DNA from: an uncultured Gammaproteobacteria bacterium
Lineage (GTDB): Bacteria; Patescibacteriota; Microgenomatia; UBA8517
DNA: 64,000 bases
Assembly: GCA_964540475.1 (NCBI GenBank)
Contig: CAZIMC010000001.1
Location: forward strand, 345,575-409,574
Reading direction: 5' to 3'
How positions within the stretch are numbered: position 1 is the first letter of the stretch; each line of letters starts with the position of its first letter. The notes below the pieces were generated by a model, which searched no databases, was not told the origin of the DNA, and saw nothing but the letters and a program-made list of their open reading frames with translations. Positions 11,397-21,061 of this stretch are shown piece by piece. The translations under genes and the position numbers were made by a program.

Positions 11397-12248
11397 ATGA
11401 AATTAGCACTAAAATTATTTTGCGGGATGTGCTTCGGATTTGTTGCTTTGGCAAGGGCTCCATCGTTAGTCAGTGCTCAAGTGGTTGTAAATGAAATTAA
11501 TCCATTTGAAGAGTGGGTTGAGCTTTATAAGACTCAATCAGGAGAAGTGAGCATGGAAAATTGTACAATATATTTCCACAACTCAACTTCTTCTTCTCAG
11601 AATAAAGCTTTTACTCCAGATGACAAATTTTTGGAAAATGAAAATTACAAAAAAATAGACACTGGTGCAACTTGGCTCGATAATAATAGTGACACAGTTA
11701 TTCTTGAATGCGATTGGGGTCAAAACTCTGTATCATATGGCACTGGGGGTGTGGTGGTTAAACCTCCTAATGGTAAAACTGTGGGACGATACCCAGACGG
11801 AGGAAGCGGTATTTATGTGTTGGATAGCCCATCGCCTTTAGCAGCTAACGCACTTCCGCCATCACCAACACCAACTCCCACTCCCACACCGACACCTACG
11901 CCCACACCCTCTCCTTCTCCTTCCATTGCTCCAACCCCTTCTCCTAAGCCCTCCCCTTCCCTTAAGCCTGCGCTTTCTCCCAGTCCGACAGCTACAGCTT
12001 CAGCCTCTCCCTTGGGTACAACATTTGATGAAGAAGAAGCCTTAGGCCCAAGAGGTGAAACATTGGGGATTGGAACATCTGCTTCAGCTTCACCAATGGT
12101 TGCTGGTGCCGAAACATCGAGTAGAAAATTTTCGCCGGTTGCAATTATATTAATAGTTGGCGGACTATTACTTGTGGGCTTTGCATTATTTATGTTCTTT
12201 AAGAGCTATCAAAAAGATAAACAAACTGGTGGACCTACCCCTGTATGA
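11397..12248 (+). CDS. Lamin-tail-domain (LTD) protein with Pro/Thr/Ser-rich linker and C-terminal TM anchor
   Basis: It has a signal peptide. The LTD-like start '[32 protein letters not shown]' is followed by the linker '[37 protein letters not shown]' and a C-terminal hydrophobic helix '[21 protein letters not shown]'. Confidence 0.5.
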
Positions 12249-13495: not shown

Positions 13496-13675
13496 ATGCA
13501 TGACTTTTCTGTTAAGCAAATTTCACCGAAGCTTCTCTTGGAAATAAAAACAGCTCTTCAGAGTGTGGATGCATATGGGAGTGTAGAGCTTTATGTACAG
13601 GATGGTGTGGTTACGCAGGTAACCGTAAGAAATATCAGGAAAACAAACGGTCACAGATTGCAAAAATCAGTGTAA
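13496..13675 (+). CDS. DUF2292 (YezD)-like small protein, 59 aa, not in the ORF track
   Basis: It runs from ATG 13496 to TAA 13673-13675. The translation MHDFSVKQISPKLLLEIKTALQSVDAYGSVELYVQDGVVTQVTVRNIRKTNGHRLQKSV matches the DUF2292 pattern '...YGSVxIxIQDGKVVQIExxEKxR'. Confidence 0.45.
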   Translation: MHDFSVKQISPKLLLEIKTALQSVDAYGSVELYVQDGVVTQVTVRNIRKTNGHRLQKSV

Positions 13676-13687
13676 CTTTTGTAATAC

Positions 13688-13716
13688 TTGACAAGCTCTA
13701 CGTAGATTAGTATATA
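13688..13716 (+). promoter_or_regulatory. Near-consensus sigma70-like promoter (TTGACA-N17-TATATA) of the repeat-protein operon
   Basis: TTGACA lies at 13688-13693 and TATATA at 13711-13716 with a 17-nt spacer. This predicts a TSS near 13723 and a ~150-nt leader before ATG 13871. Confidence 0.4.
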
Positions 13717-13735
13717 TTAAGGGACACAACGAGCT

Positions 13736-13790
13736 GACCGCAAACGGAGGCTTTTCATCCTGAACAGGGGTGGGAAGCCTCCGTTTTCGT
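13736..13790 (+). promoter_or_regulatory. Conserved leader motif GACCGCAAACGGAGG plus leader hairpin (5' arm AAACGGAGGCTT / 3' arm AAGCCTCCGTTT); a second hairpin lies at 13812-13836
   Basis: A perfect 11-12-bp inverted repeat 'aaacggaggctt'...'aagcctccgttt' flanks a ~20-nt loop and is followed by 'tcgttt'. A second stem, 'ctccccgatt/aatcggggaa', follows at 13812-13836. The 15-mer recurs in the equivalent position upstream of the minus-strand paralog (19940-19954). Confidence 0.4.
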
Positions 13791-13870
13791 TTATAAAGCG
13801 TAAACGGATTTAGGTGAAGTGCTCCCCGATTTAATCGGGGAAACCAATCTAGAAAGGAGGTGAATAGTAT

Positions 13871-15172
13871 ATGAATTTATTTCAAAAGAAAGTCGCTTCT
13901 GCAATCGCTTCAGGTGCAATGCTTCTTAATTTAGTGGTACCGGCATTAGCTCAATCCACTACATTAGTCATTACTGGAAACGGTGCAGATTCTGAAAACA
14001 AGACAGACGTCAAGGTTACTACCTCGACGACAGTTACACAAAATAACGATGCAAACATTAGCAACAACGTAAACTCAAGCGCAAACACTGGTAATAATAC
14101 AGCTAGCAGAAATACTGGTGGTGATGTTTATGTTGGTACTGGAGACGCAACATCTGTTGTTTCAGTTGCAAACACTGCAAACAGCAATCAAGCAGACATC
14201 GACGGATGCTGCGGTAGTGATGTTGAGGTGCTCATTGGTCAAAATGGAGCCGACAGTAAAAACGATGCCAAACTGAAGCTCGAAAATACTGTTTGGGTAG
14301 ACCAAAACAATGATGCTAGTTTGCAAAACAACGTCACCTCCAATACAAACACCGGTGGAAATCGTACAAACAGAAATACTGGTGGTGATGTTGCCATCGA
14401 AACAGGAGATGCATTATCTGCGGTAAGCATTGAGAACAGTGCAAACTACAACTCGGCTAGAATTGGCGGAGGCAGTGGTAGCTCACTAAGTATGTGGATT
14501 CTTGAAAATGGTGCAGACACCAAAAACAAGATCGACCTTAAGTTTGAGAACTTGCTGGGAGTTAGACAATATAACGACGCAAATGTTTCAAACAAGGTTA
14601 ATGCTGACGCAGAAACAGGCGACAACAAAGCAAACAAGAATACCGGTGGCGAAGTATTTATCGGCACAGGTGATGCAGAAGTTGGAGTCTTAGTTGACAA
14701 TTTAGTCAACTTCAATTGGGCAGACGTAGAGTGCGACTGCTTGATGGATGTACTGGCTAAGATTGCAAAAAATGGCGATGAATCCAAAAATGAGATAAAA
14801 GCCAACCTGTCTGATACCAGATATGTTGCTCAAGAAAACGATTTCTCATGTGGAAAAGGTGGTTACGGATTGCCTTCAATTCTTTCATTACTCTTGGGTA
14901 AGAAGAAATCAGGAGGAGATTGTAACGACATAAACGCCTATGCCGGCACCGGTGATAATACCGCCAAGGCAAATACTGGTGAAGGTGACAGTGACCCTGC
15001 CATCGAAACCGGTAACGCAAGTGTCTTTGTTGAAGTTGAGAACACAGCCAATTCCAACGAAGTTGGAGCGGGTAGTGGCCCATCCTGGGAGTTTCCTCTT
15101 CCTGGAGGCTTTAGTTTCAACTTAAACATTTCCTTTAGCTTGGCACAATTATTGGCCGCTTTGGGACTTTAA
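13871..15172 (+). CDS. Secreted Asn/Thr/Gly-rich tandem-repeat protein (paralog 1), putative surface/fibre protein
   Basis: It has the SD 'gaaaggaggtga' and a signal peptide 'MNLFQKKVASAIASGAMLLNLVVPALA'. It contains at least 5 degenerate ~80-aa repeats of the form 'GNGADS.N...V.Q.NDA...NNV.S.ANTG.N.A.RNTGGDV.I.TGDA..V..V.N.ANSN'. Cys pairs (GCCG, CDC, C...C) lie between repeats, and the C-terminus is hydrophobic. Confidence 0.8.
   Translation: MNLFQKKVASAIASGAMLLNLVVPALAQSTTLVITGNGADSENKTDVKVTTSTTVTQNNDANISNNVNSSANTGNNTASRNTGGDVYVGTGDATSVVSVANTANSNQADIDGCCGSDVEVLIGQNGADSKNDAKLKLENTVWVDQNNDASLQNNVTSNTNTGGNRTNRNTGGDVAIETGDALSAVSIENSANYNSARIGGGSGSSLSMWILENGADTKNKIDLKFENLLGVRQYNDANVSNKVNADAETGDNKANKNTGGEVFIGTGDAEVGVLVDNLVNFNWADVECDCLMDVLAKIAKNGDESKNEIKANLSDTRYVAQENDFSCGKGGYGLPSILSLLLGKKKSGGDCNDINAYAGTGDNTAKANTGEGDSDPAIETGNASVFVEVENTANSNEVGAGSGPSWEFPLPGGFSFNLNISFSLAQLLAALGL
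13960..15060 (+). repeat. Degenerate ~240-nt (~80-aa) tandem coding repeats; similar repeats continue in the paralogs at 15640-17100, 17590-18330 and 19250-19750
   Basis: The protein-level periodicity is the 'NTGGD...TGDA' unit. At the nucleotide level some repeats share identical 21-mers, for example 'agaaatactggtggtgatgtt' at 14108-14128 and 14372-14392. Confidence 0.6.
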
Positions 15173-17500: not shown

Positions 17501-18627
17501 TGAAAAAAATCAAACAAATTTTTATGCTGCTGACCATTTCCTCGTCTCTTTTTCATTCTTCTGCATTGTGGGTAGCTGCACAAGAGTTGGTAATTTCCGG
17601 CAATGGTGCGGGTGCGGGCAGCGAGGTCGCTATTCAATCTAATTCAACTACTACTATTTCGCAGAGCAATTCTGGCGAAGTTGTCAATACGGTGGACACC
17701 CAGGCCAATACCGGGGGTAACGAAACTAGTGGTAACAGTGGAGACGTTGCAATACAAACAGGCGATATTGAAAGTTTCACTAAGATTCAGACTAGTTTGA
17801 ACCACTCATCCGTAGTTAATGAGTGCTGTAATGGACCAGAGATAAAAATTGAGGTTAACGAAAACGGTTCAGATTCAACAAATAACGTTTCTGTTACATC
17901 AAACAATCAAACAACCATTACAGTAAATCAAAATGCTACAGTGGGCAATAACGTTTCAGGCACGGCTAATACTGGACATAATACAGCCAATAATAATGGT
18001 GGAAATATTTATATTGGTACAGGTGATATAAAAGCTAAGTCGGTAGTTAAAACTGGTCCAGTAAACTATGTACAAATTCAAGGAGGGTTAAATGGGAGTG
18101 GTCTCAATATTGATGTATCTAATAATGGGGACTCTTCCAACAACCTGGTTACTCTCTTGTTAAATGACCTGGCTAATATAAATGTAAACCATAGTGCTAA
18201 CATCTATAACAAGCTAGATTGGGATCTAAATACTGGTAATAATGTCGCCAATGGAAACAATTGGGATGTAATGATTAAAACCGGCGACATTTTATTAGAT
18301 TTGTTGATCGAGAACGGACCGGTCAATGTTGGTGGAATAACCTGGGGTTGCTGTGATGGAGGCACACCCGATGGACCAGATGATCCCAGTGATCCCGACA
18401 ACGAAGGAAACCCGCCCAAAGGAAGTGGTGGGGGATCTCAAAATGGAGCTTCAATAAGTGAAATATTGGGAATTGGTCAAGGTCCGGCAGTACTTGGTTT
18501 GTCGGCAACGGGAGGTCTGTTTGACGCACCCGTTTACTTCTGGTTGGGTATGTTTCTTATTACCTACGGATTTAAACTACTAGGTGAGAACTTGCCCCGT
18601 ATCCGCTTCGTAAAAAATGGCAATTGA
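17497..18627 (+). CDS. Secreted Asn/Thr/Gly-rich repeat protein (paralog 3), C-terminal TM
   Basis: An ATGA start/stop overlap joins it to the upstream paralog. Its signal peptide is 'MMKKIKQIFMLLTISSSLFHSSALWVAA'. The repeats are 'SGNGAGAGSEV...ANTGGNETSGNSGDVAIQTGD' with CC pairs 'NECCNGPE' and 'WGCCDGG'. The C-terminus is '...LSATGGLFDAPVYFWLGMFLITYGFKLLGENLPRIRF'. Confidence 0.8.
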   Translation: MMKKIKQIFMLLTISSSLFHSSALWVAAQELVISGNGAGAGSEVAIQSNSTTTISQSNSGEVVNTVDTQANTGGNETSGNSGDVAIQTGDIESFTKIQTSLNHSSVVNECCNGPEIKIEVNENGSDSTNNVSVTSNNQTTITVNQNATVGNNVSGTANTGHNTANNNGGNIYIGTGDIKAKSVVKTGPVNYVQIQGGLNGSGLNIDVSNNGDSSNNLVTLLLNDLANINVNHSANIYNKLDWDLNTGNNVANGNNWDVMIKTGDILLDLLIENGPVNVGGITWGCCDGGTPDGPDDPSDPDNEGNPPKGSGGGSQNGASISEILGIGQGPAVLGLSATGGLFDAPVYFWLGMFLITYGFKLLGENLPRIRFVKNGN

Positions 18628-19168
18628 AAAGACCACTAGGGAGAAACTTGGTTTGGCTATATCGCTAATTGTATTGGGCGTACTATTTATATGGAATAGG
18701 ACACCTTCCACTGTCGCCTCTGACACTTTCAAGAATGAACCAGTTAAAGTTCAGGGCTTTGACACACAGAATGCAGAGGGAGACTTGCCTACGAGGGTCG
18801 TTATTCCTGGCCTGGGCATAGATTTACCAGTCGAAAGAGCAAAAATTATAGACGGATATTGGGAAGTATTTGAAGATACGGCAGCTTGGGGAGAGGATTC
18901 TGGGTTACCGGGTAAGCCGGGAAATCAGGTGGTTTTTGCTCACGCCAGAGAGGGTTTATTTTTACCCCTTAAAGACGTCTCTGAGGGGGAAGTTATTTAT
19001 ATTTTGACAAATAGTGATTGGTATTCATATAAGGTGGCTGAAATAAAAGAAGTACTCCCAAATCAGACAGAGGTAATTGCACCCACCCTTGATGAAACGC
19101 TTACACTTTATACTTGTTCTGGGTTTAACGACAGTAAGAGACTTATTGTCATAGCTAAGAGAGTCTAA
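18617..19168 (+). CDS. Sortase (transpeptidase) family protein
   Basis: This 183-aa ORF overlaps the 3' end of paralog 3 by 11 nt. It has an N-terminal TM 'LGLAISLIVLGVLFIW', a conserved His in 'VVFAHAREG', the catalytic 'LTLYTCSG' (TLxTC) motif and a downstream Arg ('SKRLIVIAKR'). Confidence 0.8.
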   Translation: MAIEKTTREKLGLAISLIVLGVLFIWNRTPSTVASDTFKNEPVKVQGFDTQNAEGDLPTRVVIPGLGIDLPVERAKIIDGYWEVFEDTAAWGEDSGLPGKPGNQVVFAHAREGLFLPLKDVSEGEVIYILTNSDWYSYKVAEIKEVLPNQTEVIAPTLDETLTLYTCSGFNDSKRLIVIAKRV

Positions 19169-19176
19169 AACTACAA

Positions 19177-19207
19177 GGGGGATCTTTGGTCTACTCAAAG
19201 ATCCCCC
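19177..19207. terminator. Bidirectional hairpin terminator between the convergent sortase and minus-strand repeat-protein genes
   Basis: A perfect 12-bp inverted repeat 'gggggatctttg'/'caaagatccccc' flanks a 7-nt loop. It lies 8 nt after the sortase stop and 17 nt after the minus-gene stop. A T-rich tract on the minus-strand side (complement of 'acaaaa'). Confidence 0.5.
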
Positions 19208-19820: not shown

Positions 19821-19939
19821 TTAAATCACCTCCTTTCTGGCAAGTTTATTAATTTGAAGTGACAAATTGATCTCTTGTTGAATCGACAAGAAGTGACTCG
19901 AGACGTACCTAGTAGACAGATATATCTTCTTCATAAAAA

Positions 19940-19954
19940 CCTCCGTTTGCGGTC
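19940..19954 (-). promoter_or_regulatory. Second copy of the leader motif GACCGCAAACGGAGG (minus-strand orientation)
   Basis: The + strand reads 'cctccgtttgcggtc', whose reverse complement is gaccgcaaacggagg followed by ttttt. It lies about 120 nt upstream of the minus-strand start codon at 19820, matching the ~121-nt spacing in the + strand leader. Confidence 0.4.
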
Positions 19955-20060
19955 GGTTTGTAAAATGTAAAGACAGTGTAGCAGACTTAAAAGCGTGAGC
20001 GTCAACTGCATCTTATTTGTTAAAAATGTATACAAATGTAATTGTTAAACTAAGGCGGAA

Positions 20061-20101: not shown

Positions 20102-21061
20102 ATGCTACATAATCTGTCCCATCTTTTTATTCCCAGAGAGAGCAATAACTATAAAGCCAAGTTGCTACACCACAGTGGTATTTTAGTGCTAATTTCCCTT
20201 TTAATTACGTTTCAAGGTTTTGTAAACTTGTTACCTAAAATTAGCCCCAGCGTTTTAGGTTATGCTGCAAATATTTCACCTGATGATGTAGTAAGGTTAA
20301 CCAACGAAAAGCGTATACAAGCAGGACTTTCCCCATTATCGCATAATTCTGTATTATCAAGTGCAGCGCAAGCAAAAGCGGTGCATATGATTGAAAATGA
20401 TTATTGGGCACACGTGGCCCCAGATGGCACTCAGCCATGGAAATTCTTTACTGACTTTAGTTATAAATATAAATACGCCGGAGAGAATTTGGCTCGTGAT
20501 TTTTCAAATCCTAATTCTGCGGTTGAGGCTTGGATGAATTCACCAACCCACAGAGACAACATGCTATCCTCCAAATATCGAGAAATAGGGATCGGCGTTG
20601 TGGAAGGTGATCTTAACGGAGTTGATACGACCATTATTGTTCAGTTTTTTGGAACTAATTACGCAGATTCGCTTCCACCTGCACCTGTTGCCCAAGTTCA
20701 GAATGTTGCCAATATTGCTTCGCCCGCCCCCACTTTGCAGCCAACATCAACACCCACCTTAACACCTACTCCCACCCCCGCTCCCATCTCTAGTTCAACA
20801 CCTTTCGTAGAAGTTATCACAACCCCTGTGCCACAAACCGCTGTATTGGAAGATCAGCGGGTGTTAATTTCTCCATTTGTAACTTCGAAAGGCGTATCCT
20901 TAAGTATAGTGGGTATACTATTGCTAGTTTTAGTTGTTGATGGAGTTGTGGTGTCAAGGCGGCGAATTGCAAGAATTGGCGGACGAACATTTGCTCACCT
21001 GGCTTTCCTGGGTATGATCCTAACAATTGCTGTAATACTTAAAGCAGGGAGGGTCATATGA
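20102..21061 (+). CDS. CAP/SCP/PR-1 superfamily domain protein with Pro/Thr linker and C-terminal TM
   Basis: The CAP-domain blocks are 'AAQAKAVHMIENDYWAHVAPDG', 'YAGENLARDFSNPNSAVEAWMNSPTHRDNMLSSKYREIGIGVV'. They are followed by the linker 'PTSTPTLTPTPTPAPISSSTP' and a TM 'LSIVGILLLVLVVDGVVV'. Confidence 0.7.
   Translation: MLHNLSHLFIPRESNNYKAKLLHHSGILVLISLLITFQGFVNLLPKISPSVLGYAANISPDDVVRLTNEKRIQAGLSPLSHNSVLSSAAQAKAVHMIENDYWAHVAPDGTQPWKFFTDFSYKYKYAGENLARDFSNPNSAVEAWMNSPTHRDNMLSSKYREIGIGVVEGDLNGVDTTIIVQFFGTNYADSLPPAPVAQVQNVANIASPAPTLQPTSTPTLTPTPTPAPISSSTPFVEVITTPVPQTAVLEDQRVLISPFVTSKGVSLSIVGILLLVLVVDGVVVSRRRIARIGGRTFAHLAFLGMILTIAVILKAGRVI

Follow-up and report, generated by a model that had tools for sequence, protein, structure and literature searches.

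The question raised by this locus is whether a 15-nt sequence, GACCGCAAACGGAGG, that is found in the leaders of two convergent genes for secreted repeat proteins is a shared regulatory element, and whether it acts as DNA or as RNA. The stretch analysed (hereafter the window) comprises 64,000 nucleotides of contig CAZIMC010000001.1, and all positions are counted from its first letter. The best reading of the sequence comparisons is that the motif marks a new 5'-leader RNA family, of the antiterminator/terminator kind, belonging to the secreted, sortase-associated repeat-protein genes of Microgenomates-type Patescibacteria. Our confidence that the motif functions as a leader RNA element is high; antitermination as the mechanism suggested by these leader sequences has, in our judgement, about an even chance of being correct.

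The motif in the window and in related genomes

The 15-mer is present in exactly two exact copies in the 64-kb window, at 13736-13750 on the plus strand and at 19940-19954 on the minus strand; with up to two mismatches allowed, one other match was found in the window, which is unrelated. The plus copy precedes a gene for a 433-aa secreted repeat protein (13871-15172, plus strand), the first gene of an operon that ends in a sortase gene (18617-19168), and the minus copy precedes the gene for a 198-aa secreted paralog (19820-19224, minus strand). The two genes are convergent, and their paralogy was borne out by an identity of 33% (E = 1e-16 to 1e-18). As first annotated, each 15-mer is followed by a T-run (GGAGGCTTTTC and GGAGGTTTTTATG) and lies at a closely matched distance from the start codon, 120 nt for the plus copy (ATG 13871) and 119 nt for the minus copy (ATG 19820), and an extended Shine-Dalgarno sequence, GAAAGGAGGTGA, is common to both genes (13852-13863, plus; 19837-19826, minus). 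The latter is a perfect 12-nt Shine-Dalgarno sequence, of which these are the only two examples in 64 kb even when one mismatch is allowed, and this suggests that the two motif-bearing genes are among the most strongly translated. The likeness between the two leaders covers ~22 nt, (C)NGACCGCAAACGGAGG-TTTT-AT, and the Shine-Dalgarno sequence; they are otherwise unrelated.

The initial annotation put the probability of a chance recurrence at roughly 1e-4, a figure that applies to a 15-mer chosen in advance and is invalid here. Markov-simulated windows are expected to hold ~7.6 inverted 15-mer pairs, and the real window holds 12, formed by 9 distinct repeats, so recurrence alone is not significant and was dropped as evidence for the motif. 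For instance, a 17-nt inverted repeat, GAAATTAGCACTAAAAT, occurs at 11399-11415 and 20180-20196, with both copies inside open reading frames (ORFs), and is probably due to chance given this expectation. On the sequences compared, the case for a real motif is one of context and of conservation in other genomes.

A covariance model of the element, R1, detected exactly two sites in the window, scoring 42 bits (plus) and 36.9 bits (minus), with the next site at 14 bits. The same model was applied to 80 metagenomic loci, each with an ortholog of the 433-aa gene at 43-53% identity, and the motif was found before the ortholog in 62 of the ~64 loci with at least 250 nt of upstream DNA. In these loci it has the form (A)GCTGACCGCAAACGGAGGC(T), that is, (A)GCYGACCGC-NNN-CGGAGGC, and lies ~110-230 nt ahead of the start codon. 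Variation within it is limited to the three loop bases of CCGC-NNN-CGG, and positions that lie outside the search pattern (-4 G, -3 C, +14 C and +15 T) are also 92-100% conserved. The exceptions are L063, a distant ortholog with a short intergenic region and no motif, and L028, from which the motif and its terminator hairpin have been cleanly deleted and which is otherwise identical to L029. These two are samples of one population (L028:7880-7910 compared with L029:7780-7960; the deletion junction reads ...ctctgcc followed by cgttttcgtttgaaagcgg...), and L028 could represent either an 'attenuator-less' allele that arose naturally or a variant produced by the assembly. The motif also precedes orthologs of the 198-aa gene in L021, L032, L033, L035 and L069, where the genes converge as they do in the window.

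The motif did not prove to be a generic repeat scattered over unrelated positions. It has two copies in 64 kb, and its matches in 1.2 Mb of related loci lie in intergenic leaders; every R1 match with E <= 0.01 in that 1.2 Mb is in a leader, bar one weak, chance-like match in a coding region (L199). A scan for CYGACCGCAAWCGGAGGY over one genome per species returned at least 119 stretches, and among the matches listed, which did not include the source genome, about a third were chance occurrences in high-GC genomes and about two thirds were low-GC loci of the Patescibacteria type. The motif is present in at least nine named lineages (Woese-, Gottesman-, Levy-, Davies-, Curtiss-, Chisholm- and Woykebacteria, Microgenomatus and WWE3), and several genomes carry at least two copies (L121, L188 plus L202, L181 plus L198). 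Many of the sequences (L090, L094, L109-L111, L119, L122 and others) come from metagenome-assembled genomes (MAGs) deposited in ENA as 'TPA_asm uncultured Gammaproteobacteria'; they are low-GC loci of the Microgenomates type that have both the leader and the repeat protein, and the organism labels of these MAGs look wrong. No match at the Rfam 15 gathering thresholds was obtained in the window or in 12 related loci, and a permissive Rfam scan of the leader (E up to 10) gave matches at noise level only. In the literature searched, no paper containing the motif string was found, and a 224-motif survey held no motif from the candidate phyla radiation (CPR).

Hairpins and leader architectures

In the RNA, the motif can form a small hairpin, P0. 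The plus copy (13731-13753), which holds the 15-mer, has an outer stem GAGCU/GGCUU, an inner stem CCG/CGG, a GA/A internal loop and the terminal loop CAAA, and the isolated segment folds with -9.0 kcal/mol (RNAfold). The minus copy (19937-19959), likewise containing the 15-mer, has the outer stem AAACC/GGUUU and -7.4 kcal/mol (RNAfold), and thus the outer stems of the window's own two copies covary, with A-U in the minus copy where the plus copy has G-C. Over 119 distinct copies the general form, ~23 nt long, is 5'-RGCY-GA-CCG-CNNN-CGG-A-GGCY-3', in which the five bases 5' of GA pair with the five that follow CGG-A, and CCG pairs with CGG. In this set, 80% of the in-register cells are paired, compared to 29-49% when the partner strand is slid by one to three columns, and the covariation score is 0.242 as against 0.153 in shuffled alignments, none of 500 shuffles reaching 0.242. 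Columns 9/27, for instance, switch between G-C and A-U, and columns 8/28 and 7/29 switch among A-U, U-A and G-C. Changes are absent or very rare in the inner CCG/CGG stem, in the GA/A internal loop and at the first base of the terminal loop, which points to base-specific recognition rather than to structure alone. Pairing with 16S beyond GGAGG and mimicry of signal recognition particle (SRP) RNA or of a kink-turn were considered by eye only, and that comparison gave them no support.

The plus leader (type T1 in the comparison below) contains a second, much larger hairpin. This terminator-like hairpin, P1, has 20 bp and spans 13742-13786; it was detected by a terminator scan and in the minimum-free-energy fold (z = -5.6), and by itself it has -32.3 kcal/mol, compared to -9 kcal/mol for P0. 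The 3' two-thirds of the 15-mer provide its 5' arm, AAACGGAGGC..., and GCCTCCGTTT forms the end of its 3' arm. Since both hairpins use 13742-13753, P0 and P1 cannot coexist. A U-tract, TTTTCGTTT (13784-13792), runs out of the P1 stem, and a U-rich tail is kept in 98 of 102 distinct T1 copies. RNAalifold applied to 28 orthologs placed 22 pairs in P1, with compensatory double changes in 13 of the 24 pairs predicted overall, and an ungapped count over 64 copies gave at least 90% canonical pairs, of up to seven pair types, at most P1 positions. The upper part of P1 varies among genomes in sequence and length, and its pairing is kept. The plus leader has two sequence features of an intrinsic-terminator attenuator: a GC-rich hairpin with a U-tract between promoter and gene, and a conserved alternative structure that excludes it.

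Promoter-like sites were read from the sequence ahead of both window copies. The plus unit has TTGACA (13688-13693), a 17-nt spacer and TATATA (13711-13716), a site of 13688-13716 that an automated scan omitted because the second hexamer ends in A; the end of its -10 hexamer is 19 nt from the 15-mer. The site of the minus unit (20005-19975), which was also returned by a promoter search, consists of TTGACG (20005-20000), a 19-nt spacer and the extended -10 element TGnTACACT (hexamer 19980-19975), and ends 20 nt ahead of the 15-mer. That search (sigma70-type, at least 5 of 6 matches in the -35 hexamer, at most 160 nt 5' of the motif) detected strong promoters for 81 of 99 T1 copies and for 17 of 26 copies of the two other leader types, T2 and T3. 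The distance from the -10 end to the motif ranges over 10-123 nt: it is 10-29 nt for 14 of the 17 T2/T3 promoters and for roughly one T1 leader in three, and reaches ~120 nt in the remaining T1 leaders. The orientation of the motif is always that of the downstream gene. With a promoter upstream in most copies, the motif would be transcribed and promoter-proximal; a location at the extreme 5' end of the transcript in every copy was rejected, as many T1 promoters lie 60-120 nt upstream.

Together, the orthologous leaders, which keep the motif at protein identities of only 43-59%, the position downstream of promoters and the RNA covariation support the shared cis-regulatory element that had been proposed for this locus. 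Two forms had been offered for it, an operator or the 5' arm of an RNA structure. The latter holds for the plus copy, and the former is disfavoured by the variable promoter distance, the fixed gene orientation, the compensatory pairs, and the presence of a complementary arm with a U-tract.

Further conserved blocks are found downstream of P1. An AAACGG block (13802-13807, plus strand) is complementary to CCGTTT in the 3' arm of P1, with which it could form an alternative hairpin, P2, and the exact sequence occurs within 90 nt past the terminator in 35 of 102 T1 leaders, where 2 are expected. In the predicted fold of the plus leader, the AAACGG region is paired with the U-tract. The block AGGTGAAGTGC (13812-13822, plus strand) is followed by a hairpin, UCCCCGA-UUUAA-UCGGGGA (13823-13841), that is present in the predicted fold, and exact GAAGTG is found in 74 of 102 T1 leaders (5 expected), at a median of 46 nt ahead of the Shine-Dalgarno sequence. 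A leader peptide was rejected for plus-type leaders, as no consistent start codon emerged among the T1 leaders compared. Separately, 26 of 102 plus-type leaders have a CTGCC(C/C) block 35-50 nt 5' of the motif (e.g. L002:7770-7790 and L006:7410-7425); the window, in which the promoter immediately precedes the motif, has no such block.

The minus leader is built differently. Reading of the sequence and RNAfold revealed no complementary 3' arm, terminator or downstream CCTCCG, and without such a hairpin the minus copy is not an intrinsic-terminator attenuator. Instead, the GGAGG of its motif has the position of a ribosome-binding site for an upstream ORF of 37 aa (19821-19934, minus strand; translation MKKIYLSTRYVSSHFLSIQQEINLSLQINKLARKEVI), whose ATG lies 5 nt past GGAGG and whose TAA directly abuts the main ATG 19820 of the 198-aa gene. 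Non-homologous upstream ORFs occupy the corresponding place in L033, L069 and L051. In the minimum-free-energy fold, the main Shine-Dalgarno sequence of the minus leader is paired with the upstream segment UCACUUCUU.

Types T2 and T3 were defined from the listed matches of the motif scan and from second copies in the metagenomic loci. T2 leaders are without a terminator, and the GGAGG of their motif is the predicted ribosome-binding site either of the gene itself (L010, L032) or of an upstream ORF (the window minus copy, L033, L069 and L051); an ATG follows GGAGG by 3-9 nt in the window minus copy, L033, L069, L051 and L010. T3 leaders (19 curated copies) have a shorter terminator with a stem that starts at motif positions G12-C14, e.g. 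AGGCACCC...GGGTGCCTTTTTT. Among the orthologs of the 198-aa gene, those of L021 and L035 have a terminator joined to the motif, and those of L032, L033, L069 and the window have none. The occurrence, within one ortholog group, of the motif either with a terminator or with an upstream ORF or Shine-Dalgarno sequence suggests one sensor joined to two expression platforms.

Proposed mechanism and rival explanations

We hypothesize that a trans-acting factor, most likely an RNA-binding protein specific to the lineage, recognizes P0. This factor would keep P0 closed and thereby hold the 5' arm of P1 away from its 3' arm, and the polymerase would read into the operon; in its absence, P1, being far more stable (-32 compared to -9 kcal/mol), would form and halt transcription. 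In leaders of the minus type, binding of the factor would control the access of ribosomes to GGAGG, and hence to the upstream ORF, whose stop lies at the main start codon. Both window genes would then belong to one regulon, with responses in the same or in opposite directions. We infer the co-regulation of the two genes, as well as termination and read-through at P1, from sequence. A conserved hairpin that usually overlaps a terminator would probably mean on/off control of the main surface proteins.

Several points weigh against this proposal. P0 is weak, with -9 kcal/mol and just 5 + 3 bp, and its three outermost modelled pairs are present in only 41-55% of the copies. Closure of P0 would turn the plus leader on and might turn the minus leader off by occluding the Shine-Dalgarno sequence, and such opposite signs would be avoided only if translation of the upstream ORF were inhibitory. 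One would not readily expect a default-off terminator in front of a gene that probably has the highest expression of all, and in the syntenic loci the hairpin could instead end the upstream ftsEX...DUF2292 operon. Kinship among the sequences can also inflate covariation statistics based on shuffling; the slid-register control and the many independent pair types disfavour this explanation for P0.

The first rival to be weighed against control by a dedicated factor is a leader of the stabilizing Shine-Dalgarno (STAB-SD) type. STAB-SD of Bacillus thuringiensis cry3A is a Shine-Dalgarno-like sequence ~125 nt 5' of the start codon. In the leaders analysed here, a free 30S subunit would bind GGAGG, shield the mRNA from 5'-exonucleolytic decay, and free the plus leader from its terminator. 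The GGAGG is perfect and near the transcript 5' end in many copies, it has true ribosome-binding-site geometry in the minus-type leaders, the 3' arm of P1 carries CCUCC, an anti-Shine-Dalgarno mimic, and no gene of the window other than the two targets has a perfect 12-nt Shine-Dalgarno sequence, a feature suggestive of very high expression. However, the invariant GCYGACCGC and the CCG/CGG stem are left unexplained, since complementarity stops at GGAGG; moreover, the base preceding GGAGG is always C rather than A, P0 sequesters part of GGAGG, and in plus-type leaders no start codon follows it. We regard this explanation as doubtful.

It is unlikely that the element is purely a structural stabilizer of the 5' end, or a processing site for RNase III or another enzyme, with neither a switch nor a dedicated factor. 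The mRNAs of highly expressed surface proteins, such as those of S-layer genes, usually have long structured leaders. P1 is a duplex of 20-22 bp near the 5' end, and L028 retains the rest of the leader in the absence of motif and hairpin, as if the element were dispensable for the gene. A stabilizing hairpin needs no fixed sequence, however, and here ~20 nt are near-invariant while the proteins are ~45% identical; the U-tract is kept in 98 of the 102 copies, and minus-type copies retain the motif without the large hairpin.

P0 might also be read directly, by a tiny riboswitch mechanism or by a free 30S subunit, in an as yet unknown circuit for the surface proteome of Microgenomates-type bacteria, to which we assign a low probability. 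If true, such direct sensing by P0 would place it among the smallest modular sensors, and its targets would be the first regulon defined in these uncultivated bacteria. In its narrower form, in which P0 is a small-molecule riboswitch whose miniature aptamer acts through the terminator (plus) or the ribosome-binding site (minus), this is very unlikely. It would account for one conserved sensor on two expression platforms, for invariant bases at loop, bulge and stem positions, and for the mutual exclusion of the sensor and terminator folds. On the other hand, P0 has only ~23 nt and 8 base pairs with no sign of a pseudoknot or second helix, the targets are structural surface proteins rather than enzymes or transporters that would suggest a ligand, and no likeness to any Rfam riboswitch was found.

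A DNA operator, at which a repressor or activator would act on the double-stranded motif just past the promoter, is highly improbable. A near-invariant segment of ~20 bp that often lies 14-30 bp past the -10 element is compatible with a roadblock, but the segment is not palindromic, its halves being offset by the asymmetric GA/A loop, and the changes in its flanks are compensatory in the manner of RNA, G-U pairs included. More than 100 copies have a complementary arm with a U-tract, the promoter lies at variable distances of up to 120 nt, and the orientation is always that of the gene. Finally, chance, or a remnant of the duplication behind the paralogs, would fit the ~7.6 inverted 15-mer pairs expected and the paralogy of the two genes, but has a negligible probability and is refuted by the presence of the motif before orthologs of both genes in dozens of distant genomes in which the surrounding leader is not conserved.

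Gene neighbourhood and comparison with known systems

Both window proteins have a signal peptide and N/T/G-rich repeats. No exact-protein record was found for the 198-aa protein, and the one found for the 433-aa protein was on a contig of just 1.6 kb; the 433-aa protein has hundreds of homologs, with up to 59% identity, and those with named sources are from Woesebacteria, Gottesmanbacteria, Amesbacteria and the 'Microgenomates group'. The gene order is conserved on both sides of the leader. On the 5' side it is ftsE-ftsX-M23 peptidase...254-aa membrane protein, DUF2292 gene and intergenic leader, and on the 3' side it continues with the repeat protein, two larger repeat proteins, a sortase and a CAP-domain protein. 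Signal-peptide proteins are encoded by 20 of the 24 genes that follow T2/T3 copies, and most of them are homologous to the window repeat proteins. In Chisholmbacteria (L174:6892 and L188:2847), the motif with a short terminator stands before a gene for a PIG-L/LmbE-like deacetylase, and with these genes the putative regulon would extend beyond repeat proteins.

A 59-aa DUF2292/YezD-like protein is encoded directly 5' of the plus leader (13496-13675, plus strand), as it is in all syntenic loci examined. It is possible that this protein is a partner of the leader; sequence searches of Pfam, NCBIfam and PDB gave no hint of RNA binding by DUF2292. A Pfam search of eight neighbouring window proteins, to which its coverage was confined, detected no CAT-PRD domain. 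Between the convergent units lies a 12-bp GC-rich palindrome, GGGGGATCTTTG...CAAAGATCCCCC (19177-19207), which, read on the minus strand, resembles a terminator (tail TTGTAGTTTT), and it is a candidate for that of the 198-aa gene.

CPR bacteria cannot be cultivated on their own and probably rely on contacts at the cell surface, and to our knowledge almost nothing is known of their gene regulation. By means of the element, a set of secreted, sortase-linked repeat proteins can be grouped into one putative regulon. P0 would provide a short RNA bait for its regulator, whether protein, ligand or ribosome, and R1 can be used to annotate such leaders. A real switch would mean that bacteria with such reduced genomes use terminator/antiterminator control of the classical kind.

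The element was compared to known leader systems. Riboswitch families share the joining of one sensor to a terminator or a ribosome-binding site, but P0 is far smaller than almost all aptamers, the gene content suggests no ligand, and there is no Rfam match. ANTAR leaders differ in having two tandem hexaloop hairpins, the second of which overlaps the terminator, whereas P0 is single and has a 4-nt loop, CNNN. The cry3A STAB-SD is similar in that GGAGG lies ~120 nt 5' of the start and near the mRNA 5' end, and that the protein is a very abundant exported or accumulated one. It is defined by complementarity alone, whereas the P0 motif has ~15 more invariant bases and competing helices, and the GGAGG of the minus copy precedes an upstream ORF.

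The leaders served by LoaP, a specialized NusG paralog, and the eps-associated RNA (EAR) of eps operons resemble the present ones in their promoter-proximal hairpins, their operons for envelope or secreted products, and their read-through. Those systems act processively on distant terminators, whereas here the terminator physically overlaps the hairpin. PyrR-binding loops are also short hairpins with a purine-rich bulge that occur in several leaders per organism, together with terminator and antiterminator folds; they show no sequence similarity to P0, and PyrR favours termination through an anti-antiterminator, whereas P0 itself competes with the terminator.

The ribonucleic antiterminator (RAT) of the BglG-LicT-SacY systems likewise has no sequence similarity to P0, which has a single GA/A internal loop where RAT has two loops; furthermore, the targets here are surface proteins rather than sugar-utilization genes, and some copies overlap the ribosome-binding site. 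In its layout, however, RAT is alike: an imperfect leader hairpin of ~25-30 nt, present in several units, the 3' part of which overlaps the 5' arm of a terminator, and which, being weak, needs to be stabilized to prevail over that much stronger structure.

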